64,000 nucleotides of DNA, from IMG/VR virus record IMGVR_UViG_3300042897_000994, positions 64,001 to 128,000 of that record. One strand, given 5' to 3'. Every line of letters begins with the position of its first letter. Positions within the stretch are counted from its first letter, which is position 1. The translations under genes and the position numbers were made by a program. This document shows positions 492 to 53,516 of the stretch, piece by piece. This DNA comes from a virus. The notes beneath the pieces were generated by a model that was given only the letters and a program-made list of their open reading frames with translations, was not told the origin of the DNA and searched no databases.

Positions 492-2264
492 ATGAGTAAT
501 CTCAATGAAAATTATCTCGTTTACTTAAACGGCGCTTTTCCCAGTACTGCTGATTTGAATAAACAGAGTGATACATTAGCAATACTGGTAGAACAGTTTA
601 GAAAGAGCGGAAAAAGCGACGCCCAAATCTACTCAATCTTGAGTGGTATGGGAATTGAAAATTTAAAAATTTCTGCGTATTTTGAAGCAGAAAAGATGGG
701 AAAGTCTCTTCCACCTACACAACCACAAAACGCAACGCCTGCCACTGAATTTATTCAGGTAATCAGCGTAGAAGAAAAAAATACAAACAAAATGAACATA
801 ACAGAAACTTTAAAGAAGGCTGTATTAGAATCGGTTGAAGCTTTGAAGCCTTTTCAATCTGGAAAGTTTTCATATACTGCCAGCAAAGCCTCTCTTGTTT
901 TAACCGAATCTCTAACTACAATTAACAGAATCGAAAAGATGATGGCAAATGAAGTAGTTGAAAGAATTAAATCACGAGTTGAGAAAATTGCTGCTGAAAC
1001 TAATGAAAATTTAGAAACTGCAGTAGAAAATATTACAGCTAAAGTTAAAAGTGAAGTTCTAGCTGAAGCAGAATCTCTAAATTCTGAAGTAGGATCTAGA
1101 ATTAGAAATGAAGAATTAAATCTTGTACATTATTTGAGCAATTCTCTTCAGCAAATTAAAGATTTTTCACCAGTCGCAAATCTTTTTAGTCAGGTAAAAG
1201 AAAGTATTGAAAGAAATATGTTTAGCCTAAAGCTTAACTATTACTTGAATTCTGTACCACCTGCTGGTATGTATACCAAAGGGGTGGCTGAAATGAAAAG
1301 CGAATTTAATAAAGGTGAAACTTATCTAAGAGAAAACTTTTCAGATTTTGAAAAGTGGAATTGGGTTCCAGGAATTTCTCAAATGATTAAAGAATTCTCA
1401 GAATATACCAAGTCACTTAGAAGTAATGGGAGTGGAAAGCTGGTTAAAGTATATTCTCCAATCCAGGAAAATGAAGATAAGAGTATTACTTTCTTCTTAG
1501 GGGGTAAATTCTATGCAATTCACGAAGGAAGAGTTGAAGTTGCAAATGAAAATCAACAACCAAATTCAAGAACTTTAGCCGTTCTTGAAGGTCTTTCTTT
1601 GATGAAAGATATGGGAAGCACTTTTTCTTACTTCAAGGGAGATAAAAGTTTCGATATTAACAAAGAAACCGGAGCATTCTCTATCAACGGTAAAGCAGTA
1701 TCAGAATCTGAAGCTCCAAAACTTATCAACTTATTAAGAGAAAATGCAGTAATTGCTCTTCATGAATCTGCAGTAGTTGATAAATTAGCAGTTCTTATTG
1801 AATCAGTAGATTTAGTAAAAGAACTTGATTTTGTAAATTCAATTAACTCAATTATTCACAGAGATGTTGCAGTTAATATGATCAGAATTAACGAAAATGT
1901 TTACATCAACAGAGTAAACAAAGCGATGAATGTAAACGAAATGGTAGAAGTATCAAATCCAAAATTAGCTCAAGAATTAGTAAATGAGTTTGTAAACTTC
2001 GATATTTCTAATCTTGTATACGATCTTTTAGAAAAGAATGAAAAGGATATTCTAAATCTAAATGAAAAGATCGAAGTAGTAAGTAATAACTTAAAATTCC
2101 TACAAGAGAAAAAATCAGATATTGAAAGAGTTTTATCTTTGAAGCCAGATTCAAACGAATTGAAAGAGGCTGTTGAATTTGTTTCTTCAGAAATAACTTC
2201 ACAAGAAAAAAATCTTTCAGATCTGTATGTTCAACTTTCTTCTTTAACAGAAAAAAAAAGTTGA
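492..2264 (+). CDS. Coiled-coil-rich putative prohead core / internal head protein
   Basis: Late promoter upstream; many (L/I/V)-x-E sites (LNE, LTES, LHES, LIES, INEN, VNEF) like T4 gp21 cleavage sites; ends at an A9 slippery site. Confidence 0.5.
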   Translation: MSNLNENYLVYLNGAFPSTADLNKQSDTLAILVEQFRKSGKSDAQIYSILSGMGIENLKISAYFEAEKMGKSLPPTQPQNATPATEFIQVISVEEKNTNKMNITETLKKAVLESVEALKPFQSGKFSYTASKASLVLTESLTTINRIEKMMANEVVERIKSRVEKIAAETNENLETAVENITAKVKSEVLAEAESLNSEVGSRIRNEELNLVHYLSNSLQQIKDFSPVANLFSQVKESIERNMFSLKLNYYLNSVPPAGMYTKGVAEMKSEFNKGETYLRENFSDFEKWNWVPGISQMIKEFSEYTKSLRSNGSGKLVKVYSPIQENEDKSITFFLGGKFYAIHEGRVEVANENQQPNSRTLAVLEGLSLMKDMGSTFSYFKGDKSFDINKETGAFSINGKAVSESEAPKLINLLRENAVIALHESAVVDKLAVLIESVDLVKELDFVNSINSIIHRDVAVNMIRINENVYINRVNKAMNVNEMVEVSNPKLAQELVNEFVNFDISNLVYDLLEKNEKDILNLNEKIEVVSNNLKFLQEKKSDIERVLSLKPDSNELKEAVEFVSSEITSQEKNLSDLYVQLSSLTEKKS

Positions 2265-2440
2265 GCGATTTAACTAAAGCCGTAGTAATCCAAGATCTTC
2301 CTGGTCTCCAAAAAGACCAGGAAGTTTTTGTTAATGCCCTAGATTACTCGTCAGCTGAAGACGCTAAAGAAATCGAATATCAAGACTCTGAAGGTAACGG
2401 TGGGTATGTTCTCAGAAAATACCTAAAAGTTTTAATTTAA
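2258..2440 (+). CDS. -1 frame extension of 492..2264, or a TTG-started 59-aa gene; SH3-like small beta domain
   Basis: Open frame KLSDLTKAVVIQDLPGLQKDQEVFVNALDYSSAEDAKEIEYQDSEGNGGYVLRKYLKVLI*. It fills the gap exactly, and its TAA overlaps the next ATG (TAATG). Confidence 0.7.
   Translation, partial: KLSDLTKAVVIQDLPGLQKDQEVFVNALDYSSAEDAKEIEYQDSEGNGGYVLRKYLKVLI
2297..2329 (+). terminator. Intrinsic-terminator-like hairpin inside the -1 frame extension
   Basis: CTTCCTGGTCT-CCAAAA-AGACCAGGAAG (11-bp perfect stem) followed by TTTTT. Confidence 0.5.
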
Positions 2441-2802
2441 TGGAAAAAAAGATATACCTAAAGAATAAAGATTTGTATGAAGAAATCATCAAATCTAAAG
2501 AGCTTGATGAACTGACACCAAGGGCTCAAGCAATGTTAATGTTACTTGCACAAAGAGCATCCAGCAAACTTCCATATAGAAATCCAGATGACAGACAAGA
2601 TTGTATTTCTTCTGCATATTTAGATCTCTGGAGATATTGGAGAAGTTTTAACCCGGAAAAAAGTAAAAATGCATTCGCATATTACACAGAAATTTGTAAA
2701 AAGGGATTTGCTAAGGGATGGAATCAAATTCATCCTAAAAAATACGCAGGAACAATAAGCATTGATGGTGGCCGAGACTCAGACGGAATTTATACCATCT
2801 AA
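2440..2802 (+). CDS. gp55: Late-transcription sigma factor, T4 gp55-like
   Basis: 'YLKNKDLYEEI...DCISSA...FNPEKSKNAFAYYTEI' is the gp55-family region-2 signature. Confidence 0.85.
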   Translation: MEKKIYLKNKDLYEEIIKSKELDELTPRAQAMLMLLAQRASSKLPYRNPDDRQDCISSAYLDLWRYWRSFNPEKSKNAFAYYTEICKKGFAKGWNQIHPKKYAGTISIDGGRDSDGIYTI

Positions 2803-3281
2803 TGAGCGACATTAAGAAGATAAAGCCTACTCATAAATCTGGATTTAAACAGAGTTATTTCGAGCCCAAAAACTTATCAAAGTATTTGGGCTCATTTCCT
2901 ATAATATGCAGATCGAGCTGGGAAAGAAAGTTTGCAATTTTTTGTGATACAAATGACGCAGTGATTAAATGGAGTTCAGAACCTATTGAAATCAAATACT
3001 ACAATATTCTTGACAAAAAATTCCACAAATACTATCCCGATTATTTCGTTCAAATTCAAAAAGAAGGAAATCTTATTAATTATGTGGTAGAAGTTAAACC
3101 TTCTTCTCAACTCAAGAAACCTGAACCTCCGAAGAGAATTACAGAAAAGGTTGTAAATTCTTATAAAAGAGCATATGAAACTTATGTTATGAATCTTTGT
3201 AAATTAGATGCTCTCAGAAAATATGCAGAGCAAAGAAATTGGAAAGTTCTCGTTATAACCGAAAAAAGTAATCTAATCTAA
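2802..3281 (+). CDS. gp4: Head completion nuclease, T4 gp4-like (TnsA-type)
   Basis: 'PKNLSKYLG...RSSWERKF...WSSEP...YYPDY...VEVKP...EK'. Confidence 0.9.
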   Translation: MSDIKKIKPTHKSGFKQSYFEPKNLSKYLGSFPIICRSSWERKFAIFCDTNDAVIKWSSEPIEIKYYNILDKKFHKYYPDYFVQIQKEGNLINYVVEVKPSSQLKKPEPPKRITEKVVNSYKRAYETYVMNLCKLDALRKYAEQRNWKVLVITEKSNLI

Positions 3282-3282
3282 A

Positions 3283-3951
3283 ATGCCAAGTACTCCCTTA
3301 GATTTTATAATTAAAGGTGTTGGTATTCTTGATCCGATGGAGATCAAGAAGAATAGAGACATGTATATCAAAGAGAGTAAGAGTCTACCAATTGCTTCTA
3401 AAGGAGCAATAGAATGGTATGAAGAATCTGAAACTTTTAAGAATTTTCAAATAAAAAGAATAAGGACAGGTGAAGAATTAAAGCTCGGAAAGCTTTATTT
3501 CTTTGACTATGATCCTCTCGATAGAAATCAAATATATGATATTAAACCATTGATAATCAGTTTAGGTAGAATAGGGGCTAAAGACGGTTCGGTAGAAACT
3601 GGAATTAATCTAAATTATTTTCCAGAGAACGTAAAGTCAGCTATACTAGATTTTTATTTTAGAATCTTTGCAAATAGATTAAGAAGAGAAGTAAGAAGTT
3701 CCAGTGCATATAATGTACAAAAGCAGAACGGGATTGGAATTACTTGGGAAGAATTAGCACCGCTGGAAAAAAGACTTCGTATCAGTTATGGAGTTAAAAA
3801 TTACAAAATAGGTAGAATGACTGATATCAGCGAGTTTACATATGAAAGCTGGTATCAAATGACTACATATCAACCGAATGTAGATTTTAGGAATGCGACA
3901 CTTGCTGAAGTGTATCGTAATTATTTTGAATATATAAAAAATAAAGCATAA
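3283..3951 (+). CDS. gp2: DNA end protector, T4 gp2-like
   Basis: 'GKLYFFDYDP...YDIKPLII...GINLNY' pattern; lies between gp4 and portal. Confidence 0.7.
   Translation: MPSTPLDFIIKGVGILDPMEIKKNRDMYIKESKSLPIASKGAIEWYEESETFKNFQIKRIRTGEELKLGKLYFFDYDPLDRNQIYDIKPLIISLGRIGAKDGSVETGINLNYFPENVKSAILDFYFRIFANRLRREVRSSSAYNVQKQNGIGITWEELAPLEKRLRISYGVKNYKIGRMTDISEFTYESWYQMTTYQPNVDFRNATLAEVYRNYFEYIKNKA
3929..3936 (+). promoter_or_regulatory. Late promoter motif AATATATA before portal
   Basis: Matches the RATAWATA-A consensus. Confidence 0.6.
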
Positions 3952-3957
3952 TAAAAA

Positions 3958-5619
3958 ATGGCTGGCTTTCAGGACAGAAAAGGACCTCTTACTAGAGGAA
4001 ATCCTATAAGTGATACTCTCAAATCTTTGAGTAAGCTTGGGATGAAGTATGACGACATGGTCATTAGAAACTCTCGAGCTGTCGGTTTTACCGAGAGCAA
4101 GTTAGGTTATACGATGAATCCATCTGGATCTGATGCAGATGATATTTATTATGCATTTGCCGCTCTTTCAATGACGGATACTTCTAGTAAGAAGAATATC
4201 TCATTTTTTGATAAAAGTTATCCAAAGAAAAGAGATGAATTACGTCAGTTTGCAATTCAAGATGAAATTGAAGAGATTCTAGATACTGTTGCTGATGAAG
4301 CAATTGTATATGATGAGTCTAATTATTTTTGTTATCCTACCCTAAGAGGTCCTGTTAGTAAATCTCTAAGAGAAGATCTACAAGATAATTTTAACAAAAT
4401 TTACGAGTATTTTGGCTTTCAAGACGGACTTTCTGCATGGAACTATTTTAGAAAATGGTTAGTAGACGGTTATCTTTGTTTTGAAATTGTCTATAATGAC
4501 GAACAAGATCAGGTAATTGGATTTAAAGAGCTTGATCCAGTTTCTCTTTTTCCCGCAGTTGACAAAGATAGCGGTAAGAAGATTTGGATACAGTATAAAG
4601 GTGGCGGTCCTAAAGAAAGAATATTATGGGATGCTCAAGTAATTTATGTTTCATATTCTTCAGCTAACTCTCCTTCTAGAGTCTCTTACGTTGAAAGATT
4701 AGTTAGATCTTTCAACTTATTGCGAATTATGGAGCACTCCAGAATCATCTGGTCTGTTACCAATGCAAGTTACAAAATGAAATTTGTAATCCCAGTTGGT
4801 GGTAAATCTAAAACAAGAGCAAAACAATCTCTTTCTCAATTGATGCACAATTATCGAGAATTAGTAGATTTTGATTATGAATCAGGAGAATTATCTACTA
4901 ACGGTAAACCGATGATGCAGTTTCACAAAGAATATTGGTTGCCTTCAAAGGATGGAGAATCTCCGGAAATTGACACCCTTTCTAACGACGGCCCCGATCT
5001 TTCAGATGTAGAAACTCTTAAATGGTTTGCTGACAAATTAAAAATGGCTTCTAAGATTCCTTTCAGCAGATTTGACAAAGATAGTCCAGCTACATATGAA
5101 ATGGCAGCTGAAGGGATGCAAAGAGATGAAATAAAATTTGCTAAATTTATTAATAGACTTCGCTCTATATTCCAGGAAATTATTACTAAGCCCCTGTATC
5201 TACAGATGGTTTTAGATAATCCTGAGCTACAAGACGATTTTAACTTTAAAGCTAATCTTAGTGTAGAATATAATAAAGATAACGTATTTGAAGAATTAAA
5301 AGAAATGGAACTTGCTTCTAAAAGAATAGACTTTATCTCTACTATGATGAGTTCTCTCGTTGAACAAGATGCTGATATGAATGAAATACCATATTTCAAT
5401 CTAAGTTACCTAATTAAGAGATATGGTGGATTTAATCAAGAAGATCTCAGAGCCAATGAAAGAGAAAAAACGATTGAATCACTAGAGAAAGAGGGATACA
5501 GCAAAGAAGACTCCGAAAAGATAGTGGCAGGTGAGCCTAAAAAGAATTTCAAAAAACAAGAACCTGAAGGCGAAGAAGATTCGGCCGATGTAGGGGGAGA
5601 AATTGATTTAGGTTTGTAA
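3958..5619 (+). CDS. gp20: Portal protein, T4 gp20-like
   Basis: 'FRKWLVDG', 'ELDP', 'EYWLP..DGE..EIDTL', 'SKIPFSR', 'RDEIKFAKFINRLR' are gp20 signatures. Confidence 0.95.
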   Translation: MAGFQDRKGPLTRGNPISDTLKSLSKLGMKYDDMVIRNSRAVGFTESKLGYTMNPSGSDADDIYYAFAALSMTDTSSKKNISFFDKSYPKKRDELRQFAIQDEIEEILDTVADEAIVYDESNYFCYPTLRGPVSKSLREDLQDNFNKIYEYFGFQDGLSAWNYFRKWLVDGYLCFEIVYNDEQDQVIGFKELDPVSLFPAVDKDSGKKIWIQYKGGGPKERILWDAQVIYVSYSSANSPSRVSYVERLVRSFNLLRIMEHSRIIWSVTNASYKMKFVIPVGGKSKTRAKQSLSQLMHNYRELVDFDYESGELSTNGKPMMQFHKEYWLPSKDGESPEIDTLSNDGPDLSDVETLKWFADKLKMASKIPFSRFDKDSPATYEMAAEGMQRDEIKFAKFINRLRSIFQEIITKPLYLQMVLDNPELQDDFNFKANLSVEYNKDNVFEELKEMELASKRIDFISTMMSSLVEQDADMNEIPYFNLSYLIKRYGGFNQEDLRANEREKTIESLEKEGYSKEDSEKIVAGEPKKNFKKQEPEGEEDSADVGGEIDLGL

Positions 5620-5637: not shown

Positions 5638-5645
5638 GATATATA
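5638..5645 (+). promoter_or_regulatory. Late promoter motif GATATATA
   Basis: Upstream of the prohead protease gene. Confidence 0.75.
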
Positions 5646-5661
5646 AAAAAAATTATAGAGC

Positions 5662-7482
5662 ATGGCTCATAAAAAACTTCTTATTTTAGAAAGATCCGGA
5701 GAAACCCTTAAAACGACAGCTGATGACGGTTCGGTTGTTCTAGAAGGCGTTTTCACACAAATTGGAGTTCGTAATAAAAATAACAGAATTTACGAAGAGA
5801 AAGAATTTCTTCCTCATGTTAAAGATCTTCAAGAAAAAATCAAGGGCAAAAAACTTTTAGGTGAATTAGATCACCCAAAGTCTTTCGATATTTCACTTGC
5901 CAACGTATCACACGTAATTGAAAAATTAGAGTACGATCCGTCAACCAAGCAAGTAATGGGAAGAATTAGACTTCTTGATACAGATGCAGGAAAACAAGCC
6001 AAAGCTTTAGTAGAGGCCGGTGTTCCTCTTAATATTTCATCTAGAGCCTCTGGGCGAGTTGATGAAAATGGAAAAGTAAAAATTCAGAAACTATTTACTT
6101 ATGATCTAGTAGCCGATCCAGGATTTGAAGCTGCTGAATTACATAGAGTAAATGAATCTCTAGGGTTTGACGACAGTGATGATCTATTGATTTATGAATT
6201 TGAAGATCTCAATTCAGAAGAAACTAAAGTAGAAGTTAAACCTGAAGAAATTGTTCAAGAGTCAAAACCTGAAATCAAAGAACCAATAAAAGAAAATACA
6301 GAAGAAAATACTCAACCTACTATGAATTATGTTAAAGTTGAAGATTTCGATAAGTACTCAGAATATCTGAAAACCGAAATCACGCAAATTAAAGAAGAGG
6401 CTTCAAAAGAGTCTATAGACTTCGAAACCTTCGAAAAGCTGGTTAAATATACTGAGCATATTGCTGAGAAACTTAATCAAGTTCACGATTATTCTAATTA
6501 CTTAGGAGAAAACTTAGATAAGAGTATTTCTCATGGTGATTATATCGTTGAAAGCGTAAATAAATTGAAAGACTATGCTAATTACTTAGCAGAAAGTTTA
6601 CAAAACGGGATTGGCTACTCTGAATATGTTGCTAATAAGCTCGAAGAGTCTATCAAATATCAAAACTATTTAGCAGAAAACGTTCAAAAGGGTATTGATT
6701 ATACTGAATATGTTGCCGAAAACCTAGACAATAGTATTCAGTACCAAAACTATTTGGCTGAAAATCTTGAAAGCTCTATTAAATACTCCGATTATCTAAA
6801 GGAGAATATCGAGAAGATCGGTAAATATGCAGACTACATTGCTGAAAGTGTTAATAGAATTCAAGAAAACAAACCAGCAGATGAAGAAACTCCAGCAATT
6901 AAAGTTGAAGAATCTGTAGAAACAACTCCAGAAGTTAAAGTTGAAGAGAATGATACTACTGTATCATATCAAGATCAAATTTCTAAGAAATTGAATGCTC
7001 TATTAGAATCAGCAGTAGTACAAAAAGAAGAAGATCACTTCTTTAGATTTTTAGACGCTTCTAAGAGAAATGAATTTTCTTCTCTTAACGAAAGTAAGCA
7101 AAACGAAATCAAAGGTGCATTTGAAATCAATAAATATTTTTCTGTTGCAGATGCAAATAGAATTTGGGAATCTTGCTTTATTCAAAAGCCAACTTCTCTA
7201 GATGTAGTTGGTAATATGCCAGAAAAATATAAAGCAAAGTGGGAATCTTTAAACGAGTCTCAACGAAGCAGTATTCTTGCCCAGTCTAAGTTTTGGCCTT
7301 TGAATACACAGTATCAGATTGATAACTTCTGGCAAACAAGAGACTTAAGAACTGTTAAAGTTAATTCTCCAGTTAATGAATCTTCTGTAGCTCCTTTAGC
7401 ACCAGAAGATAAGAATGCAGCAGTTAACGAACAGCTTGAAAATATCAAAAATGCAATTAAAGCAAGATTTGATAAGTTCTAA
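5662..7482 (+). CDS. gp21: Prohead protease (gp21-like) fused to scaffold/core region (gp22-like)
   Basis: N-terminal 'LEGVF...NKNNRIY...LGELDHP...VSH...ISSRASG...YDLVADP'; C-terminal acidic, repeat-rich coiled coil. Confidence 0.9.
   Translation: MAHKKLLILERSGETLKTTADDGSVVLEGVFTQIGVRNKNNRIYEEKEFLPHVKDLQEKIKGKKLLGELDHPKSFDISLANVSHVIEKLEYDPSTKQVMGRIRLLDTDAGKQAKALVEAGVPLNISSRASGRVDENGKVKIQKLFTYDLVADPGFEAAELHRVNESLGFDDSDDLLIYEFEDLNSEETKVEVKPEEIVQESKPEIKEPIKENTEENTQPTMNYVKVEDFDKYSEYLKTEITQIKEEASKESIDFETFEKLVKYTEHIAEKLNQVHDYSNYLGENLDKSISHGDYIVESVNKLKDYANYLAESLQNGIGYSEYVANKLEESIKYQNYLAENVQKGIDYTEYVAENLDNSIQYQNYLAENLESSIKYSDYLKENIEKIGKYADYIAESVNRIQENKPADEETPAIKVEESVETTPEVKVEENDTTVSYQDQISKKLNALLESAVVQKEEDHFFRFLDASKRNEFSSLNESKQNEIKGAFEINKYFSVADANRIWESCFIQKPTSLDVVGNMPEKYKAKWESLNESQRSSILAQSKFWPLNTQYQIDNFWQTRDLRTVKVNSPVNESSVAPLAPEDKNAAVNEQLENIKNAIKARFDKF
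6448..6852 (+). repeat. About ten 14-aa repeats (Y-x-x-Y-L-A-E-N-L-x-x-S-I-x) in the scaffold region
   Basis: YSNYLGENLDKSIS / YANYLAESLQNGIG / YQNYLAENVQKGID / YTEYVAENLDNSIQ / YQNYLAENLESSIK. Confidence 0.85.
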
Positions 7483-7585: not shown

Positions 7586-9271
7586 ATGAATCATTTAATT
7601 AATGAAGCCGAAGTTGTAAGAACTTGGGCGCCCGTGATTGAGGAAGCTACTGGTATTTCAGACAAAGGTAAATTAAACTGGATGTCTAAATACTGCCACT
7701 TCCATCAGTTGAATGAGAATGTGTACAACCAAGTACACTTGAATCCTAACGCCAACGTTTATGGTATGGGTGCAGTTACCTTCCCAGGTGACCCAACCAC
7801 TACTACTGGATTCAATGCTCAAGCAACCGGATCTGGTGACAGACCTTTCAGTCTGCTTCCTCTAGCTATGCAAGTAGCTGCTCAAACAGTAGGTCTTGAC
7901 CTTGTTCCTGTAGTACCAATGTCTGGTCCTCTTGGAATCTTGACTTACTTAGACTTTATCTATGCTGGTGGTAGACTAGATTCTACTGAACCGCCATTGA
8001 TGGTTAAAGTTAACACTACTACCGCTACTTTTGGTAGTTCTTTAACGAATGCTACTGCATGGACTGCTAACACTACATATTATCTATGTTCTGCTGCTGG
8101 TGCTGCTACTTATGCTCTTACTTTTGTAGGTCTATCTCGTATCGACGGATTACCTATCTTTAAAGTAAATGCTTACAATAGTGGTGCAGCTCAGCCTAAC
8201 GGTACTGCAGGTACTGTAACTTTAGCAGCTGCAGCTATTGCTACTGCAACAATTTCAACCAATGCTAATGGTACAGGTGACATCGTTACATTTACCGCAA
8301 GCGGAACTCTTGAACTTGTAAAAGCTCTTGAAGATCATATCCCAGGTTTCTCTGGTGCTGGTTTTGCTCCTGCTGCAGTAACAGGTGGTAACAGTGTTGC
8401 TAACGTTGAACCTTTCTTGAGAGCTGATGGTGAATTAACATCAGATAACCTAATGGGTCTTTCATTGTTCAATAAATCAGTTGCTGCTGAAACTTACCAA
8501 GTTGCAGCTGCTGTAACTAGAGAGCAAGTACAAGACCTTAAGCAATTCGGTATTGATGCAGTAGCTCAAGTAGAAGCTGTATTGGTTAATGAATTGACTC
8601 AGTCAATCAACAAGTTGATTCTTCAGAGAATCTTCAGACTAGGTGCAAGTAACGCAGAAAACGTATTTAACGTTGATGCTACTAACTTAAACCTTTTTGT
8701 AGCTGCAACGGCTACAACCACTTCTATCGATCTTGGTACTAATGCAAATGGAGTAGCCGTAAGTATTCTTACTTCTTCTACTATCCCTACATCAGGTGAC
8801 AACGGTGGTACATTGCAAAGAAAGATTTTATCTAGAATCCTAGCTGCTTCAAACTTGATCGCTATCCGTGGTCGTAGAGGAGCTGCTAACTTTGCAGTAA
8901 CTAACGGTCAACTTGCTACTGCAATCCAAGATATCGCTGGATTTACTCCATACCCAATGGCTAACACCGTTAACCAAAACGGTGGATCTCTATATCCAGT
9001 TGGTTCTGTTGCAGGTGTAACTATCTACGTAGATCCTAACATGTCATGGACTGACACTAGAATCGTAGTAGGTAGAAAAGGTGACGGTAACTCTCCAGGT
9101 CTAGTATTCATGCCTTACTTAATGGCTGAATCTGCCCAGACTATTGCTGAAATGACTATGGCACCTAAAATTGCTGTTAAGTCAAGATTCACTCTAGTTG
9201 ATGCTGGTTTCCACCCAGAAACTATGTACTTCACTCTAGGAGTTAAGTTTACTAGTTACTCAATCGTTTAA
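7586..9271 (+). CDS. gp23: Major capsid protein, T4 gp23-like
   Basis: 'LVPVVPMSGPLG', 'EQVQDLK', 'LVNELTQSINK', 'RGRRGAANFAV', 'GLVFMPY', 'KSRF'; strongly biased codon usage; follows the protease gene. Confidence 0.95.
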   Translation: MNHLINEAEVVRTWAPVIEEATGISDKGKLNWMSKYCHFHQLNENVYNQVHLNPNANVYGMGAVTFPGDPTTTTGFNAQATGSGDRPFSLLPLAMQVAAQTVGLDLVPVVPMSGPLGILTYLDFIYAGGRLDSTEPPLMVKVNTTTATFGSSLTNATAWTANTTYYLCSAAGAATYALTFVGLSRIDGLPIFKVNAYNSGAAQPNGTAGTVTLAAAAIATATISTNANGTGDIVTFTASGTLELVKALEDHIPGFSGAGFAPAAVTGGNSVANVEPFLRADGELTSDNLMGLSLFNKSVAAETYQVAAAVTREQVQDLKQFGIDAVAQVEAVLVNELTQSINKLILQRIFRLGASNAENVFNVDATNLNLFVAATATTTSIDLGTNANGVAVSILTSSTIPTSGDNGGTLQRKILSRILAASNLIAIRGRRGAANFAVTNGQLATAIQDIAGFTPYPMANTVNQNGGSLYPVGSVAGVTIYVDPNMSWTDTRIVVGRKGDGNSPGLVFMPYLMAESAQTIAEMTMAPKIAVKSRFTLVDAGFHPETMYFTLGVKFTSYSIV

Positions 9272-15458: not shown

Positions 15459-17405
15459 TTGGCAGTTTCAAGTAATACCGTAAACGAAGTCGGAGAATCA
15501 ATTTTAATTACTCTCATAGCTCCTTATGAAAGGGTAGTTTCAGTCTTGTCATACACAGATTCGGTTATAGGAGAGGATGCTTATAACTACTTCAAAAAAG
15601 AGTTCAGATGGTCCATTGATGATGTTACATATTCAGACTATTTGAATTTAACTGATGAGAATCTGTATTCTCTTAATTTAGATCCTAATAATCCATTTTG
15701 GATTCAGTATAGGTATACCGTTGAATCTTTAGAATCTGGTCATGAACTCACATTTGAAAGCATTTCTTTAGAAGTTTTAACAGAGCAAGGCACTCTCGTA
15801 GTTGTTCCTCAATATGAATGCTGTTCCGGTGATGAAGCTAATGTATGCAACAATCTGGTTTTAGAGTGCTGCGGGAATGAGACCTGGAATCCATATAATA
15901 TCGGAGGAGCAATTTCTACATATAAGTTTTTAAGTAAAGCAGTATCTGATATTTTTGGATTTTGTGTTCAGTATTACAAGACTGAAGCTGATCAAAGAAG
16001 CAAAGACGTTGTTCTAAAAGAATATACACTTTTTAATGTGATTGAATCCGCAGAGGTAAAAATCATGGTCCCAGACAATGAATTACCAACGAGAGAGATT
16101 GCATTTAATCCTTTGATGATGGATTATGCAATGGATGTTTTCGAGATTCATGTAGTAAAGAGTGAATTTGAACAGATATTTGGAAGAAAAAAGAAACCAG
16201 AACAGGGAGATTATCTTTATTTTCCTATTATGCAGAAACTTTATGAAGTTAACAGCGTAGCAAGACCAGATGATTTTATGTATGATTCTAGTTACTGGAG
16301 AGTAGGCTTAGTTACATATCAACAAAGAGGTAATTTTGCATTTAGTGATCAAAACATAGAAGATGAGGTGGAAGCCCTTATTTCTAATCTGGATGACTTT
16401 GAACCAGAAGTTATTAAAGAAGAAAAGATCATAACTAAACCACAAGAATATAAGACTGTAGGAACCGAAGGAAATGATTATGTAAGAAGAATTCTTCTGA
16501 AAAAATTAATCATCAAAGAAGAGAAGATTTACAATAACTGGACTGTAGTAGGAAAATATTATTATAGACTTTCTTCGCTCGCATCAGCTGAAAGAGGAAT
16601 AGTCTATAGATACAATTCCGGAATTTCCGAAGCAGATAGTAGAAGTTTCACGTACTGGTTCAAACCTGGATTTACCAAACCTATCTATTCAAACGTAAGT
16701 ATCACTTCGATATCTAATAACGGCGGATTAGCAGAAATAATCGTTTCCGCTACTGGATATGCAGTAGGAGACTATGTAGTTATTGAAGGCACATCCGATT
16801 ATAATGGTTTAGCAGAGATAGTTGAAGTTTCATCTTCATCGTACACTATTGATAAAGATTATGTAAGCTCTACCATTACACCAACTGCTAGACTGCATAA
16901 AGAAGAAAAATGTAATTTTCTTAATTATGAGTTAAATTCTTCAGTTTTATTCGGGGTAAGCTATACGCAGAATTATTATGTGATAGAGATAAACAGTATG
17001 AAATATGTCTTTAATTTGACGACTAATTCAGCTTCTCTTTCAAATAATCAATGGTATGCAGTAGTAATAAATTTCTCGAATGTTTTCCAACAGCTTTCGT
17101 TATTCTTATGGAAATCACAAACCCTTTTAGGTTCTAGCGATCCTACTCGAAACGTAGAGCTCGAAAACATTTATACGTCTACATATCAGACTTCATCAAA
17201 AGTTACTCTAGCTTCTAACGGGGAGTGGGGAGTTTATGGTTGCAATATGCAATTTACCAATTTTAGAATATTTACTCAGCCTATTGAAGTAGAAGAACAA
17301 TCTCTTGTACTTTCTCAATATGTTGTTAAGAATACAGATCTTGCGGAGCTAGTAGACAATGCTACTCCTCAACTCAGATTAAGCAGAGTTTCTAACCCTA
17401 GATAA
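15459..17405 (+). CDS. Neck protein gp14-like core with N-terminal beta domain and C-terminal LamG-like domain
   Basis: 'KDVVLKEY...FEIHVVKSEFE...PEQGDYLYFP...LYEVNSV' is gp14-like; 'SFTYWFKP...NQWYAVV...TNFRIFTQPI' is LamG-like; TTG start. Confidence 0.7.
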   Translation: MAVSSNTVNEVGESILITLIAPYERVVSVLSYTDSVIGEDAYNYFKKEFRWSIDDVTYSDYLNLTDENLYSLNLDPNNPFWIQYRYTVESLESGHELTFESISLEVLTEQGTLVVVPQYECCSGDEANVCNNLVLECCGNETWNPYNIGGAISTYKFLSKAVSDIFGFCVQYYKTEADQRSKDVVLKEYTLFNVIESAEVKIMVPDNELPTREIAFNPLMMDYAMDVFEIHVVKSEFEQIFGRKKKPEQGDYLYFPIMQKLYEVNSVARPDDFMYDSSYWRVGLVTYQQRGNFAFSDQNIEDEVEALISNLDDFEPEVIKEEKIITKPQEYKTVGTEGNDYVRRILLKKLIIKEEKIYNNWTVVGKYYYRLSSLASAERGIVYRYNSGISEADSRSFTYWFKPGFTKPIYSNVSITSISNNGGLAEIIVSATGYAVGDYVVIEGTSDYNGLAEIVEVSSSSYTIDKDYVSSTITPTARLHKEEKCNFLNYELNSSVLFGVSYTQNYYVIEINSMKYVFNLTTNSASLSNNQWYAVVINFSNVFQQLSLFLWKSQTLLGSSDPTRNVELENIYTSTYQTSSKVTLASNGEWGVYGCNMQFTNFRIFTQPIEVEEQSLVLSQYVVKNTDLAELVDNATPQLRLSRVSNPR

Positions 17406-18062: not shown

Positions 18063-19883
18063 ATGCCAGCACAGTATAAAGATAGCGAAGTACAGCTAGT
18101 AGTCCCAAAGGGAGATCTTGAAGAAAGAATTTCCTGGAGCAGTGAAAAAGTCAGCCAGTTTATGCTTGCTCTCGACGAAGGATATAAACCCAAGGGTGGA
18201 ACTCCTTTCTATGAAGGTAATCCTGATTTGAGAAAGGGAAATATACTTTTTGATTATACTGCACATGAAATTGAAGAAATTAAAAAATGCGCATCAGATA
18301 TATGTTATTTTGCCGATAACTACTGCACTGTAATGACTGATGAAGGTCTTAGAACAATTGTTCTCAGAGATTATCAGCATGAAATGTTGAATCACTTTCA
18401 AGATAATAGATTTTCAATATGTCTCGCAAGTCGTCAGATAGGAAAGACAATATGCTCTTCTATCTATATTGCATGGTATGTCTTATTTAACTATGACAAA
18501 AATGCTTTGATTCTTTCTAACAAAGGCGCAACTACTAGAGAAATTATTGATAAGGCAAAAGTAATTCTTGACAATTTACCTTTCTTTTTGAAACCTGGTG
18601 TCGTAAAGAATGACGTCTTTAATATGAAGTTTGATAATGGCTGTCGTATCATCGGTCAGAGTACAACTAAAAAGGCAGCAATCGGTTTTACCATTCACTT
18701 GTTGTTTATGGACGAGTTTGCACACATCCATTCAAGTTTCTTGGACATATTTTACGAAAACGTTTATCCTACAATTTCATCTTCAAAAATCTCTAGAGTA
18801 ATCATAACGAGTACTCCAAATGGTTTTAACAAATTCTACGATCTCTATACTACTTCGATAAACGGTAAAAATGAATATGCACCCTTCCGAGTAGACTGGT
18901 GGCAAGTTCCCGGCAGGGATGATGCATGGATGAAAAGAGAAGTAGCGAATCTTGGAACAGAAGAAGCTTTCAACAGACAATATGGCAATCAGTTTATCGC
19001 TAGTTCTAATCTACTCTTAGGGCCTTCTACTATTAAACGTTTACAGGCTGGAGAAAAAGCTTTTGTTCATCATGAATTTTATGAGTTAGATGACATTGAT
19101 ACTAATTATAGCAGTCTGGTCTGGCATCCTGAATTCGATATTGATAGAACAAGAGAAGACGGAGAATACTGGGTTCTTTCTGTAGATATCGCAGAAGGAA
19201 ACGGTGGAGACTATTCAGTAATTAATATCTTCAGTATTGATGTTATCCCAACTGAAGACTTTAAGAATATCAAAAATCCTGGTACTTTTATCGACTTTTT
19301 TGGATTGAAGCAGATAGGAGTTTTCAGAAGTAATGAGCACACAATAGAAGAATTTAGTAAAATTCTATATGTTTTAGGATTTAATATTTTTGATCCAGAA
19401 AACGTTAAAATGGTTATTGAGTGGAATATGTTTGGATCCGAATTGATTAGAAGAATGGAAACTATTTTTCCAGCCAAGAATGATTTTGATGAAGAAATGA
19501 TAGTCAAATTTAAACATAGAGCAGATGCCAAACAGCTTAAATTCGGATTAAAACTAAAAAGAGATAACAAATCAATCTTCTGTCAAAATTTTAAAAAATA
19601 TGTTTCGCAAAATAGAATTACAGTAGAACACAAACACACAATTACCGAGTGTATTAGTTTCGGTAAAACACCAACCGGAAGCTACGAAGGAATGTTAGGA
19701 AATGACGATTTAGCAATGTCATGTGTAAACGTTTCTGAATTTTTTCATACCGTTGACTTTTCTGATTTTGTAGAAGAAAAATATGACCTTGTAGATAAAA
19801 GTATTCAAAATGTGATTGATGAATTATTGGCAAGAGATAAAGATGACGGTAATCTTTTTTATGATATTTACGATCTAGTTTGA
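18063..19883 (+). CDS. gp17: Terminase large subunit, gp17-like
   Basis: 'LRDYQ', 'SRQIGKT', 'MDEFAH', 'STPNG', 'VDIAEG.GGDYS', 'DDLAMS'. Confidence 0.97.
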   Translation: MPAQYKDSEVQLVVPKGDLEERISWSSEKVSQFMLALDEGYKPKGGTPFYEGNPDLRKGNILFDYTAHEIEEIKKCASDICYFADNYCTVMTDEGLRTIVLRDYQHEMLNHFQDNRFSICLASRQIGKTICSSIYIAWYVLFNYDKNALILSNKGATTREIIDKAKVILDNLPFFLKPGVVKNDVFNMKFDNGCRIIGQSTTKKAAIGFTIHLLFMDEFAHIHSSFLDIFYENVYPTISSSKISRVIITSTPNGFNKFYDLYTTSINGKNEYAPFRVDWWQVPGRDDAWMKREVANLGTEEAFNRQYGNQFIASSNLLLGPSTIKRLQAGEKAFVHHEFYELDDIDTNYSSLVWHPEFDIDRTREDGEYWVLSVDIAEGNGGDYSVINIFSIDVIPTEDFKNIKNPGTFIDFFGLKQIGVFRSNEHTIEEFSKILYVLGFNIFDPENVKMVIEWNMFGSELIRRMETIFPAKNDFDEEMIVKFKHRADAKQLKFGLKLKRDNKSIFCQNFKKYVSQNRITVEHKHTITECISFGKTPTGSYEGMLGNDDLAMSCVNVSEFFHTVDFSDFVEEKYDLVDKSIQNVIDELLARDKDDGNLFYDIYDLV

Positions 19884-19928
19884 TATATAAATAGAAGAAT
19901 ACAAAAAGCTATTCCGCGAAGATATATA
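19882..19928 (+). promoter_or_regulatory. Two tandem late promoter motifs (GATATATA at 19882 and 19921) before the sheath gene
   Basis: Two exact motif copies 39 nt apart. Confidence 0.75.
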
Positions 19929-19946
19929 AAAAAAATCTAACTAAAA

Positions 19947-45295: not shown

Positions 45296-46032
45296 ACGAA
45301 ACCTACCGGCAACTGGCAATACATTTTAAGGAAACAAAAGACGAAAAGACATTCAACAAGCTCTATGCTCGTATCAAACCCGGTTTGACAAACTACATCT
45401 ATAATATCGTTAAAGATAGAGAAGCTGCCAATGATATCGTATCAGATACTCTAACTAAATTATACACCTTAATAGACACTTATAATCCCCAATATGAAGT
45501 TACAACTTGGCTCTATCGAATAGCTAAAAATGACGCAATTCATTTCATTTATTATCGTAACTCTTTTACTTCTTTGAACGCTTTTGCAGATAAAGGATAT
45601 GAAGCTATTGATAGTGATGATCTAAAAAGATTTGGGGGAAAATCTTTGAGTATAGACGAGTCTTATCAACAAACAAATGTAGAAAAAGAGCATCTAGAAA
45701 AAGAAGAAAATCTACAGAAAAAATATAATATTTGCGTAGATGCAATAAACTCTCTGAAGCCAAAATATCGCCAGATAATGATGGATCGTTTCTTTGGAAA
45801 AATGGCGTATCAAGATATTGAAGCAAAGATAAACAATCCAATCTTTGAAAAAATCAAAGAGATAGAAGAAGATTCCAATTTAACTGAGGATGAGAGAAAA
45901 TATGCTCTGAAGAAACTAAAATCTTCTCTTATAAATCTTCAAACTGTTAAAAATAGAATACATAGAGGGAGGAAGATTATCCAAGAAATTCTAGGCAATC
46001 ATCCTATCTTCTGTGTGCGCGAAGATATATAA
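45292..46032 (+). CDS. ECF-type RNA polymerase sigma factor
   Basis: Region 2 'AANDIVSDT..K......YNP.Y..TTWLYRIAKN'; region 4 'L.PKYRQI......MAYQDI...TVKNRIHRGR'. Confidence 0.9.
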   Translation: MNETYRQLAIHFKETKDEKTFNKLYARIKPGLTNYIYNIVKDREAANDIVSDTLTKLYTLIDTYNPQYEVTTWLYRIAKNDAIHFIYYRNSFTSLNAFADKGYEAIDSDDLKRFGGKSLSIDESYQQTNVEKEHLEKEENLQKKYNICVDAINSLKPKYRQIMMDRFFGKMAYQDIEAKINNPIFEKIKEIEEDSNLTEDERKYALKKLKSSLINLQTVKNRIHRGRKIIQEILGNHPIFCVREDI

Positions 46033-46046
46033 AAAAAATAAAAATT

Positions 46047-52212: not shown

Positions 52213-52596
52213 ATGAAACATATTATGTTATTCGAAGAATTCATCGGAGAAGCTGGACGCTATCCGTATGTGGATCCAGAAGAAGGTACTGGTAAAAAAC
52301 CTGAAGGATCCGGTCGTAGACTATACACAGATGAAAATCCAGATGATACAGTACCTGTAAAATTTAGAACAAAGGAAGATATAGTAGATACTCTTAACAG
52401 AGAAGACTTTAAGTCTAAACCTCATGTTAGACAGTCTCAAATAATTAATCTCATTCATCAAAGAACTCGAGCTGCTCATAAACACGCTAAAGATCCAAAA
52501 GTTATTAAAAGACTTGGAAGAGCTCTAGAATATATTGAAAAAGTTAAAGAGGAGTCAAAGAAGAAAACAATAGAATTAAACAAAGATAAAAAATGA
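52213..52596 (+). CDS. Hypothetical late protein with capsid-targeting-like leader
   Basis: GATATATA at 52190; MKHIMLFEEFIGE; 'GTGKKPEGSGRRLYTDENP'. Confidence 0.7.
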   Translation: MKHIMLFEEFIGEAGRYPYVDPEEGTGKKPEGSGRRLYTDENPDDTVPVKFRTKEDIVDTLNREDFKSKPHVRQSQIINLIHQRTRAAHKHAKDPKVIKRLGRALEYIEKVKEESKKKTIELNKDKK

Positions 52597-53516
52597 AAAA
52601 AGAAAAAATAGTAAGAGGATCAGTAATCTCAACCTTTGTGATCCTTTATTTGATGGTTTCGATTATTTCGACTATTCACGTAATAGACTTTTTCGAACTT
52701 TCAAACCCGTATTGGCTAGCAGTCACTTTGGCTATTGCCTTTGAAGTTGGAGCTGCTGCTTCATTAGCTTCTTTGGTTATTTTAGATAAAATGAATAGAG
52801 GCTTGGTTTGGACTCTATTCAGCGCAATCACTCTGATGCAAATGCAGGGTAATATGTACTACGCATTTACTAATCTTCAGGATTTTACTTCATGGTCAGA
52901 ACTTTTTGGATTAATAGAAGAAGAAGTAATCTTTCAAAAGAGAATCATTGCTGCAGTGTCAGGAGCAATATTACCTCTTGTTGCATTAGGATTTATCAAA
53001 TCCCTGGTAGATTATATCAAGCCAGAGTCTGAGAAAGAAAAACTAATAGAAGAGGAAGAGAAAGAAGTAAAAGAAGAAATTTTAGGATCAGAAGAATATC
53101 TTTTTAATTTACAAAAAAATGAGATAAAGGAAGAACCGAAAAAGGAATCCTTCGAAGATTATTTAGTAGATATCCCACTTAAGTACGCAGAATCATATTC
53201 AGAACCTTCAATAGAAGAAAATGTAGAAGATATGAGAAAGGTAGTAGAAGCATATGATGATTTAGAAGAAGAAATCAAAGAATGGGAAGAAGCTTCATTA
53301 ACAGACTTTAACGAAGATGTCGAATGGGACGAATCACACGCTTTAGATCAAGTCCTAAACGATATTGCAGAAGAAGTTGAAGAAGAAGTTGAAGAAGAAG
53401 TTGGAGAGATTGAAGTTACTGAAGAACCGGAAGTTGTAGTCTCAGAAGAAAATGATTTCTCAGAATCTATTCAAACGGAAGAAGAAAACGAAAACGCCGA
53501 AGAAAAAAAAAGTTGA
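52593..53516 (+). CDS. Four-TM membrane protein with long acidic tail, ending at an A9 slippery site
   Basis: Four hydrophobic segments in the first 140 aa; Glu-rich C-terminal half; ends EEKKS*. Confidence 0.75.
   Translation: MKKEKIVRGSVISTFVILYLMVSIISTIHVIDFFELSNPYWLAVTLAIAFEVGAAASLASLVILDKMNRGLVWTLFSAITLMQMQGNMYYAFTNLQDFTSWSELFGLIEEEVIFQKRIIAAVSGAILPLVALGFIKSLVDYIKPESEKEKLIEEEEKEVKEEILGSEEYLFNLQKNEIKEEPKKESFEDYLVDIPLKYAESYSEPSIEENVEDMRKVVEAYDDLEEEIKEWEEASLTDFNEDVEWDESHALDQVLNDIAEEVEEEVEEEVGEIEVTEEPEVVVSEENDFSESIQTEEENENAEEKKS

Follow-up and report, generated by a model that had tools for sequence, protein, structure and literature searches.

We asked why a long open reading frame (ORF) of a T4-like phage should end directly behind a run of A residues while a second frame stays open across the same run, and whether one gene could in this way yield two proteins. 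The window, by which we mean the whole stretch of 64,000 nucleotides that was analyzed, comes from an uncultured T4-like phage with a genome of 160,937 bp. The ORF, on the plus strand at 492 to 2264, encodes an uncharacterized protein of 590 amino acids in the zero frame and ends in ACA GAA AAA AAA AGT TGA. Its run of nine A residues (A9; G AA AAA AAA A) lies on the same strand at 2251 to 2259, within a 16-mer at 2249 to 2264, and includes an in-phase heptamer, A_AAA_AAA, at 2252 to 2258; the zero-frame stop codon, TGA, is at 2262 to 2264 (plus strand), one codon past the run. In the -1 frame, no stop is met for 60 codons, from the run to 2437 (KLSDLTKAVVIQDL...LRKYLKVLI), with TAA at 2438 to 2440, and the extension that it encodes (2258 to 2440, plus strand) consists of the junction Lys and 59 residues that include a predicted SH3-like barrel. 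The +1 frame is also closed, by a stop at 2275 to 2277, 5 codons after the run. The extension stop overlaps, as TAATG, the ATG of a gene for a gp55-like late sigma factor (2440 to 2802, plus strand; PHROG late sigma factor, E = 1e-13), and a tight junction between the extension and gp55 is also found in the relatives L002, L003, and L010. These genes lie in a late morphogenesis block with the order gp15-like gene, 590-amino-acid gene, gp55, gp4, gp2, and portal. The ORF end, the 60 open codons of the -1 frame, and the overlap with the sigma factor gene were all part of the original prediction and were confirmed from the sequence. Stop codon readthrough was rejected as a route to a longer product, since the zero frame meets TAA two codons beyond TGA, and a phage tRNA that promotes the shift was ruled out, since the phage genome contains no tRNA genes.

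We compared the site among 11 diverged lineages from independent metagenomes, with protein identities of 34 to 96%, and found that the only positions around it that are invariant in 11 of 11 lineages are G-A9 and the T and A of the stop codon. Across these lineages, none of 12 third codon positions upstream is invariant, compared to all 3 of those in the E-K-K codons. A TRA stop is present at the identical position in every one of the 11, an outcome with a chance of approximately 0.17 per lineage, and the -1 relation between the two frames is also kept in every lineage. Conservation of the run and stop in homologues, on which the proposed recoding depends, was thus borne out. The L023 and L011 sequences have A10 with AAT T[GA]A; relative to AGT in the window, the L023 change converts Ser to Asn in frame 0 and leaves Lys unchanged in frame -1. 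At all of the out-of-frame recoding sites seen, the run consists of 9 or 10 A's, never 7 or 8. Conservation of the run exceeds what the protein requires; part of it is explained by conservation of E-K-K as protein, which is also seen in relatives with a fused domain, together with codon bias (AAA accounts for 69% of Lys codons and GAA for 83% of Glu codons).

A trivial explanation is that the run was undercalled by one A, as the original prediction had itself allowed, or that a recent frameshift mutation killed the domain. Long homopolymers are indeed error prone, and in every case the addition of one A would restore the frame. However, the same state is found in JGI, NCBI WGS, ENA, and Logan assemblies from many samples; more than 15 independent assemblies contradict an undercalled A10, and the zero-frame stop has been kept while the surrounding sequence changed, although an in-frame gene would gain nothing from retaining it. 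A decaying domain is also at odds with the purifying selection on it across lineages in which synonymous sites are saturated. We therefore regard an undercalled A10 as unlikely and error or decay as hardly credible.

Heritable phase variation would place the change of frame in the DNA, with replication slippage switching the run length and the long form made from a subpopulation of genomes. Run length variation at the DNA level also occurs in the lineage of L018 to L021, where near-identical sequences have either a fused A11 allele, in frame (L018 to L020, three assemblies from three runs), or A10 followed by the stop, out of frame (L021, one assembly). In contrast, every sequence found for the window clade and the L003 clade, from more than 15 assemblies, is out of frame, and a search of 5.8 billion proteins found no in-frame allele among close relatives. 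In addition, a switch that is mostly OFF is incompatible with strong purifying selection unless ON genomes are common, and we consider phase variation very improbable as the source of the long form.

The extension itself shows the pattern of a coding sequence in the -1 frame, with dN/dS values of 0.08 to 0.26 in that frame and of at least 1 in most comparisons for the other two. The 14 linker codons starting at the run have omega values of 0.07 to 0.76. These data also bear on a reading in which there are two genes, with the 59-amino-acid ORF starting at the TTG of TTGA by termination-reinitiation coupling and its SH3-like product acting as a free subunit. In the window and in the L006 and L026 clades, the stop shares bases with a TTG that could serve as a start, L002 and L095 have an ATG 17 nucleotides (nt) after the stop and ahead of the domain, and gene callers annotate a gene of 56 or 44 amino acids in some relatives. 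However, the -1 codon that overlaps the stop varies among TTG, ATA, CTA, and TTA, so what is conserved is Leu or Ile rather than a start codon, and the separate TTG-started gene considered in the original prediction is unlikely. In L003 and L011, the first ATG, GTG, or TTG is a TTG that lies within the fold, 21 codons past the beginning of the extension, and starting at this first canonical codon would delete barrel strand 1; in L009 and L010, the only candidate start is a GTG inside strand 1. The position of a start therefore differs among lineages, whereas conservation at the protein level extends from the run onward, and independent initiation leaves the frozen A9 and the fixed -1 relation unexplained. 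On these grounds, we judge the presence of two separate genes to be improbable, although the window clade or the L002/L095 clade, taken alone, would also fit separate initiation.

An AF2 model of the extension has a pLDDT of 91.9 and forms an SH3-like barrel with strands at residues 5 to 10, 22 to 26, 38 to 43, 48 to 52, and 56 to 58. In a Foldseek comparison with the PDB, the top 50 matches are all SH3 domains, with TM scores of 0.5 to 0.77 (mostly at least 0.6) and E values of 3e-3 and weaker, and the model agrees with the SH3-type barrel that had been proposed for the added peptide. At the sequence level, the extension matched no Pfam family at E values up to 1, including families of the SH3 clan, and nothing in the PDB, and the 59-amino-acid peptide had no tblastn match in the phage collection. 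The modeled resemblance to SH3 is thus at the level of fold only.

The 590-residue protein belongs to a family of 353 representative clusters, in most of which the SH3-like domain is fused in frame, a layout that also speaks against a free subunit. A hidden Markov model (HMM) of the extension matches at least 43 family representatives with the domain fused in frame, L001/P0028 and L030/P0020 also carry such a fusion, and the fused junction often reads SEKK[ST]K...GYVEA. Relatives of the P0015/P0016 type have neither the run nor the domain. The long form predicted from the window sequence would share its domain arrangement with the product that most members of the wider family encode in a single frame. 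In the AF2 model of the 590-residue protein (pLDDT of 71.6), a helical N-terminal part is followed by a beta-rich middle at approximately residues 315 to 487 and a C-terminal helical hairpin at 506 to 589. We found no PHROG match for 27 family members and nothing meaningful in Pfam or PDB profile searches with the 590-residue protein; Foldseek matches in BFVD were uncharacterized myovirus proteins, and a wide VIA-align search matched only generic helical hairpins, at residues 507 to 590. The label of head protein given in the original prediction was consequently not sustained, and identity as a capsid or prohead protein was dropped, as these searches revealed no homology to a known head component. 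The genomic neighborhood (gp15, gp55, gp4, gp2, and portal), which is the only basis for a functional assignment, suggests a role in morphogenesis.

Because the run and stop are invariant, the -1 frame is under selection, some lineages have no usable start, relatives carry in-frame fusions, run and domain are absent together, and the extension has a recognizable fold, we conclude that the A9 run at 2251 to 2259 is very probably a conserved programmed recoding site, used by either the polymerase or the ribosome. With standard decoding, translation would terminate one codon after the run and give a short form of 590 residues ending in ...TEKKS. In a fraction of expression events, the frame would move by -1 within the run, and the product would continue as ...TEKKK-LSDLTK..., through a short linker and an SH3-like barrel of approximately 55 residues, to a long form of 649 residues. 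The making of both forms, as originally predicted, is what we infer from the comparative and structural evidence; their ratio and the machine that slips are likewise inferred.

Two routes could produce the shift, and both yield the identical 649-residue protein: RNA polymerase may add one extra A on the run (transcriptional slippage), or the ribosome may slip by -1 on A_AAA_AAA. Because the runs have 9 or 10 A's, never 7 or 8, and no conserved stimulatory structure was found, we lean toward polymerase slippage, and both routes could act together. Bacterial RNA polymerase slips efficiently on 9 A's or T's, a length that fits the 9- to 10-bp hybrid (PMC5009743). A purely ribosomal -1 frameshift, with no part for the polymerase, is possible but less likely as the mechanism. 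The heptamer is in the correct phase, and a second site in the family (see below) contains the dnaX heptamer. We also found small hairpins 5 to 8 nt downstream of the run in L002, L095, L003, and L009, and between L002 and L095 a T-A pair of the hairpin gives way to G-C by substitutions that are silent in the -1 frame. This compensatory change keeps the pairing and fits a ribosomal stimulator. However, 7 A's would suffice for a ribosomal slip, and yet 9 or 10 are kept, including positions that the heptamer does not need. No hairpin conserved among the lineages was evident in the 40 nt 3' of the run (z scores of -1.5 to +1.1), with the window lacking structure over this interval (z of +1.06), and where some clades have weak hairpins of 5 to 6 bp 3' of the run, their spacing varies from 0 to 8 nt. 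No Shine-Dalgarno (SD)-like motif was seen upstream of the run in the aligned sequences. In addition, L018 to L021 have, in the same gene, an in-phase A8 (GAA AAA AAA CTC) 19 nt upstream of the run, which is read straight through with no frame junction, an observation that also counts against a shift by the ribosome alone.

Genome-wide, the phage has three A9 runs, and no run of A10 or longer or of T9 or longer occurs in the 160,937 bp. Such a count is unremarkable, given that run frequencies fall geometrically with length; what is unusual is position and shared flanks, since two of the three are in copies of the 16-mer, each separated by 2 nt from the stop codon that closes a long ORF (the third is intergenic). 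An A8 run at genome position 154800 was considered as a further junction and rejected, since it marks a normal boundary between genes, where a separate ATG is present. There are exactly two copies of the 16-mer, AGAAAAAAAAAGTTGA, at 2249 to 2264 and at 53501 to 53516, whereas 0.06 copies are expected from shuffled sequences (n = 100), none of which gave two. The second copy, on the plus strand, is an exact match and ends an unrelated ORF (52593 to 53516, 307 amino acids), as had been reported. Both alternative frames are open there for 37 to 50 codons, and the peptides that they encode had no homologue by tblastn against 60 related loci, so no conserved extension supports the second copy as a recoding site. 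We do not claim it as a working site; it is an unproven candidate, and the data fit equally well with A9 being tolerated only at the extreme 3' end of a gene.

Another clade of the 590-residue family has a second, independent A9 site, which reads NNA AAA AAA AAG and contains A_AAA_AAG, the dnaX heptamer, in phase. The preceding codon, whether GCA, GGA, or CTA, has A as its third base, which stretches a sufficient heptamer to 9. The -1 extension at this site in L092 matches that of L094 (E = 4e-19), and its BLASTP comparison with the in-frame far relative P0086 was not significant; the sequence match between L092 and L094 and the layout are what support this putative site.

A terminator-like hairpin with an 11-bp stem and a 6-nt loop, followed by TTTTTGTT, lies at 2297 to 2332 (plus strand), inside the extension and 33 nt past the zero-frame stop. 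The stem-loop proper, at 2297 to 2324, precedes a U-tract, and the structure has a predicted dG of -22.8 kcal/mol (z of -6.7). Synonymous changes have occurred nearby in L004, L023, and L096, yet all three keep the stem intact. At the equivalent position, the L002/L095 clade carries a hairpin that differs in sequence, and no hairpin is present in the L003 clade. If this element acts as a terminator, ribosomes on unslipped transcripts would stop at TGA (2262 to 2264), the hairpin would form, and transcription would end before gp55; on transcripts with an extra A, translation in the -1 frame through the hairpin would prevent termination and bring ribosomes to the TAATG-coupled gp55 gene. Slippage would then set both the share of the SH3-bearing protein and the late supply of gp55. 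We regard it as rather doubtful that the run and hairpin form one such switch and that poly(A) slippage is a reusable and evolvable device in this phage group. On this view, it appears that poly(A) slippage arose at least two or three times in the 590-residue family and again in an unrelated family of membrane proteins.

A large protein family of T4-like phages, with 353 clusters and no annotation, gains a very probable recoding event that is deeply conserved, and current gene callers shorten or overlook the C-terminal domain of this family. In such phages, A9 runs at ORF ends should be annotated as candidate junctions rather than errors. The run length of 9 to 10, the A8 that is read through, and the independent A9 sites provide a natural test set for polymerase slippage versus ribosomal frameshifting, and they raise the question of how the phage late-transcription complex behaves on homopolymers. 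Transcription of the gene is presumably the work of host polymerase together with the phage gp55 sigma factor. If the link between the terminator and gp55 is true, slippage would be a regulatory input to late gene expression.

Among known systems, the -1 frameshifts of Escherichia coli dnaX, lambda G/GT, and T7 10A/10B (PMC5009743, PMC4066793) share two features with the phage site: an X_XXY_YYZ heptamer of A's that is in phase, and an extension at the C terminus of a fraction of a phage or replisome protein. Unlike these cases, the phage site has no conserved SD-like or hairpin stimulator that we could find, and its run is held at 9 to 10 rather than 7; the 590-residue family is also unrelated to tail chaperones or capsid proteins. 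In Shigella spa13 and mxiE and Citrobacter tssM (PMC5009743, PMC4256274), polymerase slippage on a homopolymer likewise adds a C-terminal extension, in other genes and other organisms. In spa13, the end of the extension and the start of spa32 overlap, with an effect on spa32 expression (PMC5009743, PMC4256274), and the phage extension similarly ends in TAATG at the gp55 start, although an effect on gp55 is speculation. Thermus thermophilus dnaX, which makes tau and gamma (PMC5009743), likewise carries a coding-strand run of exactly nine A's and makes two products with a common N terminus, with nearby stops in the nonextended frames and no need for a downstream RNA structure. It differs in that the genomic frame encodes its long product and the short one arises by slippage, so that the polarity at the phage site is reversed, and in that the phage gene is apparently late, its protein is unrelated to dnaX, and its slippage is predicted. 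Thus, the site in the window is, with good support, a new case of a type of recoding that is already known.

The open reading frame (ORF) at positions 492 to 2264 of the window encodes a 590-aa protein and ends ACA GAA AAA AAA AGT TGA, while the -1 frame stays open from its run of nine A's (A9, 2251 to 2259) to a TAA at 2438 to 2440 that overlaps the gp55 ATG. The 16-mer that contains the run, AGAAAAAAAAAGTTGA, has an exact second copy at 53501 to 53516, where it closes an unrelated 307-aa ORF (52593 to 53516). Sequence inspection thus confirmed the anatomy given in the original prediction. The whole genome contains three A9 runs and no longer run of A; one is intergenic, and each of the other two, in the 16-mers, lies 2 nt upstream of a long ORF's stop. 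We found that gene callers treat the extension (2261 to 2440 in the window) and its equivalents in related loci inconsistently, as a 56-aa gene in L002, as a 44-aa gene in L003, truncated so that it begins within the fold, and with no gene call in L096 and the contig of homologue P0003.

The source of the window is a 160,937-bp contig of an uncultured T4-like phage with a G+C content of 34%, in all of which ARAGORN found no tRNA genes. Matches to PHROG identified a gp55-like late sigma factor (2440 to 2802), a gp4-like head closure protein (2802 to 3281), a gp2-like DNA end protector (3283 to 3951), the portal (3958 to 5619), a prohead protease fused to a scaffold-like part (5662 to 7482), the major head protein (7586 to 9271), a gp14-like (Hc2) protein (15459 to 17405), and the large terminase (18063 to 19883). 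A GATATAT-A8 motif is repeated just 5' of gene starts (470 to 483, 5639 to 5652, 19922 to 19935, and 46025 to 46038), including those of the 590-aa and protease genes; it looks like a late-promoter-like element ending 8 to 10 nt ahead of the ATG.

The model of the 590-aa protein (pLDDT 71.6) is helical in its N-terminal half and beta-rich at residues 315 to 487, and it has a C-terminal helical hairpin (506 to 589), after which come the linker and barrel of the extension. Its structural neighbors are uncharacterized myovirus proteins, including one of Tenacibaculum phage PTm1, and no library searched (PHROG, Pfam, PDB, or structure searches) names it, so its designation as a head protein is unsupported. 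Its gp15, gp55, gp4, gp2, and portal neighbors and an AT-rich motif that its gene shares with other gene starts suggest a role in late morphogenesis. The extension is modeled as a small barrel (pLDDT 91.9), for which the top Foldseek rows in PDB are all SH3 domains (best TM 0.65 to 0.77) and, in BFVD, several rows correspond to SH3-like proteins of phages. The proposed SH3-like character therefore holds for the fold but not for family membership, since neither Pfam nor PDB sequences gave a sequence-level SH3 match.

A word-indexed search returned 19 homologues of the 590-aa protein, and 353 were recovered when 1.84 billion representatives were searched with a profile; we examined the DNA of approximately 30 loci from IMG/VR, JGI metagenomes, NCBI WGS, ENA, and Logan. 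Three clades have the recoded state: that of the window (75 to 99% identity), P0007/P0008 (approximately 40%), and P0009 to P0014 (34 to 36%). In all three, the protein ends E-K-K-[S/N/R]-stop, the DNA reads G-A9 and two bases, or A10 (L011 and L023) and one base, before TGA or TAA, and the -1 frame then encodes a domain of approximately 55 residues, with gp55 immediately after. Other relatives, for example LR756500.1 (L001/P0028, 617 aa) and L030/P0020, have the domain fused in frame without the run; directly 5' of the fused gene in LR756500.1, a 462-kb phage, lies a 411-aa ORF (L001:2728-3963) that looks like a TnpB/IS605-family protein, judging from zinc-ribbon cysteines near its C terminus. 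Among 166 family proteins, an HMM of the extension detected 43 in-frame fusions of the domain, whose junction frequently reads SEKK[ST]K...GYVEA, and a similar FxVGDxVxV barrel follows the helical hairpin in many further members. The P0015/P0016 type has neither run nor domain and nests beside the recoded P0009 to P0014 clade in a quick tree. In the same tree, a lineage with longer runs falls among the fused SEKKSK forms: three Logan assemblies (L018 to L020; L018:4586-4596) have A11 and read in frame as ...SEKKKLSES..., while the near-identical L021 (2099 to 2108, one ENA assembly) has A10 and T TAA and is out of frame, a difference that reflects either true polymorphism or the assemblies.

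Conservation of the A run and stop in homologues had been proposed as a check, and across 11 aligned lineages the only invariant bases around the site are the nine A's with the G ahead of them and, in the stop, T and A. Third codon positions are invariant at 0 of 12 upstream sites and at 3 of 3 in GAA AAA AAA; with dS between clades at approximately 0.9 to 1.7, silent positions near the run have reached saturation. The extension has a dN/dS of 0.08 to 0.26 in the -1 frame, compared with at least 1 for other frames in most comparisons. Over the first 14 codons, counted from the run, omega is 0.07 to 0.76, and the linker peptide that they encode is recognizably conserved (K[LI][NTI]E[AGS][LI]K[PS]xEA[YF]V). 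Where the window has AGT after the two lysines, L023 has AAT, which changes Ser to Asn in frame 0 and keeps Lys in frame -1.

The original prediction had also raised a separate TTG-started gene and an undercalled run. However, the -1 codon overlapping the stop is TTG, ATA, CTA, or TTA, so that Leu/Ile is conserved there rather than an initiator; in every lineage its form yields a zero-frame TRA stop with the next A, for which the chance from genome codon usage is 0.17 per lineage. In L003 and L011 the first ATG, GTG, or TTG after the run is a TTG 21 codons in, and in L009 and L010 the sole candidate start is a GTG within the first strand, so that in the model an independent start in these four would delete strand 1 of the barrel. 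No in-frame allele was found among close relatives by word-indexed search. Together, the conservation, the selection in the -1 frame, the missing starts, and the lack of an in-frame allele make it unlikely that sequencing error, decay, or a separate gene accounts for the site; programmed recoding, as originally predicted, is very probably the correct reading. We conclude that the recoding site is real and well conserved.

Sequence alone cannot decide which machine is responsible, because the same protein would result whether ribosomes shift by -1 on A_AAA_AAA or RNA polymerase inserts one extra A on the run. We lean toward polymerase slippage because of the run lengths, a second family site, and the surrounding sequence. 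At all out-of-frame sites seen, the run counts 9 or 10 A's and in no case 7 or 8, more than a heptamer needs, and A is also kept where a heptamer could dispense with it, in the middle of GAA and at the start of the codon that follows; this following codon is AGT, AGC, AGA, or AAT, though AGY makes up just 26% of Ser codons. At the second site, GCA, GGA, or CTA precedes AAA AAA AAG, stretching a sufficient heptamer to nine, and in L018 to L021 an in-phase A8 (GAA AAA AAA CTC) 19 nt 5' of the A10/A11 run is read straight through. A purely ribosomal shift, which we consider rather unlikely, finds some support in 5- to 6-bp hairpins 5 to 8 nt 3' of the run in some clades, one pair of which persists between L002 and L095 through a change from T-A to G-C that is synonymous in the -1 frame. 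However, the 40 nt 3' of the run have no conserved structure (z of -1.5 to +1.1; +1.06 in the window), and no Shine-Dalgarno-like element was seen in the sequences 5' of it. Slippage also agrees with published work, in which runs of nine A's or T's cause efficient in vivo slippage of bacterial RNA polymerase, whose hybrid spans 9 to 10 bp (PMC5009743).

The second family site lies in a distant clade of seven representative clusters, whose proteins end ...VGDE[AV]E..KKK just inside the barrel. Here (L092:3078-3090, L093:1995-2013, and L094:2803-2818), NNA AAA AAA AAG is followed by a stop 0 to 2 codons on, and the -1 frame is open for approximately 165 to 200 codons after the A9; from KKK on, L092 and L094 share 36% identity in their extensions (E = 4e-19). 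Since this clade is monophyletic and apart from that of the window in a quick tree, and the A10/A11 lineage sits among fused forms, the device probably arose more than once. The 307-aa protein with the second 16-mer is a membrane/acidic protein, in whose family L065, L075, and L085 have an A9 at residues 167 to 171 and a homologous acidic C terminus next in the -1 frame. For the window's own second copy of the 16-mer, we found no conserved alternative-frame product, and its alternative-frame peptides had no homologue among 60 loci.

Within the extension, 33 nt beyond the TGA of the zero frame, is a terminator-like hairpin with an 11-bp stem followed by TTTTTGTT (2297 to 2332; dG of -22.8 kcal/mol, z of -6.7), which is too distant from the run to be a ribosomal-shift stimulator. 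The stem is unchanged in L004, L023, and L096 of the window clade. At the equivalent place, a hairpin with another sequence, likewise followed by GUUUUUGUU, occurs in the L002/L095 clade, and none is present in the L003 clade. As a speculation to which we give little credence, the hairpin might form and terminate transcription only when ribosomes have halted at the zero-frame TGA, which would couple slippage with read-through into gp55. A slippage-dependent extension of Shigella spa13 that overlaps spa32 influences spa32 expression (PMC5009743).

We found no publication on the 590-aa protein family, while poly-A recoding as a class of mechanism is already well known. The closest case that we found in the literature concerns the T4-like Campylobacter phage CPt10, in which a methyltransferase has a poly-A frameshift; the authors of that work proposed that slippage might rescue it (PMC2853527). 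Like the nine A's described here, the slippage site of Thermus dnaX is a run of nine A's or T's (PMC5009743).
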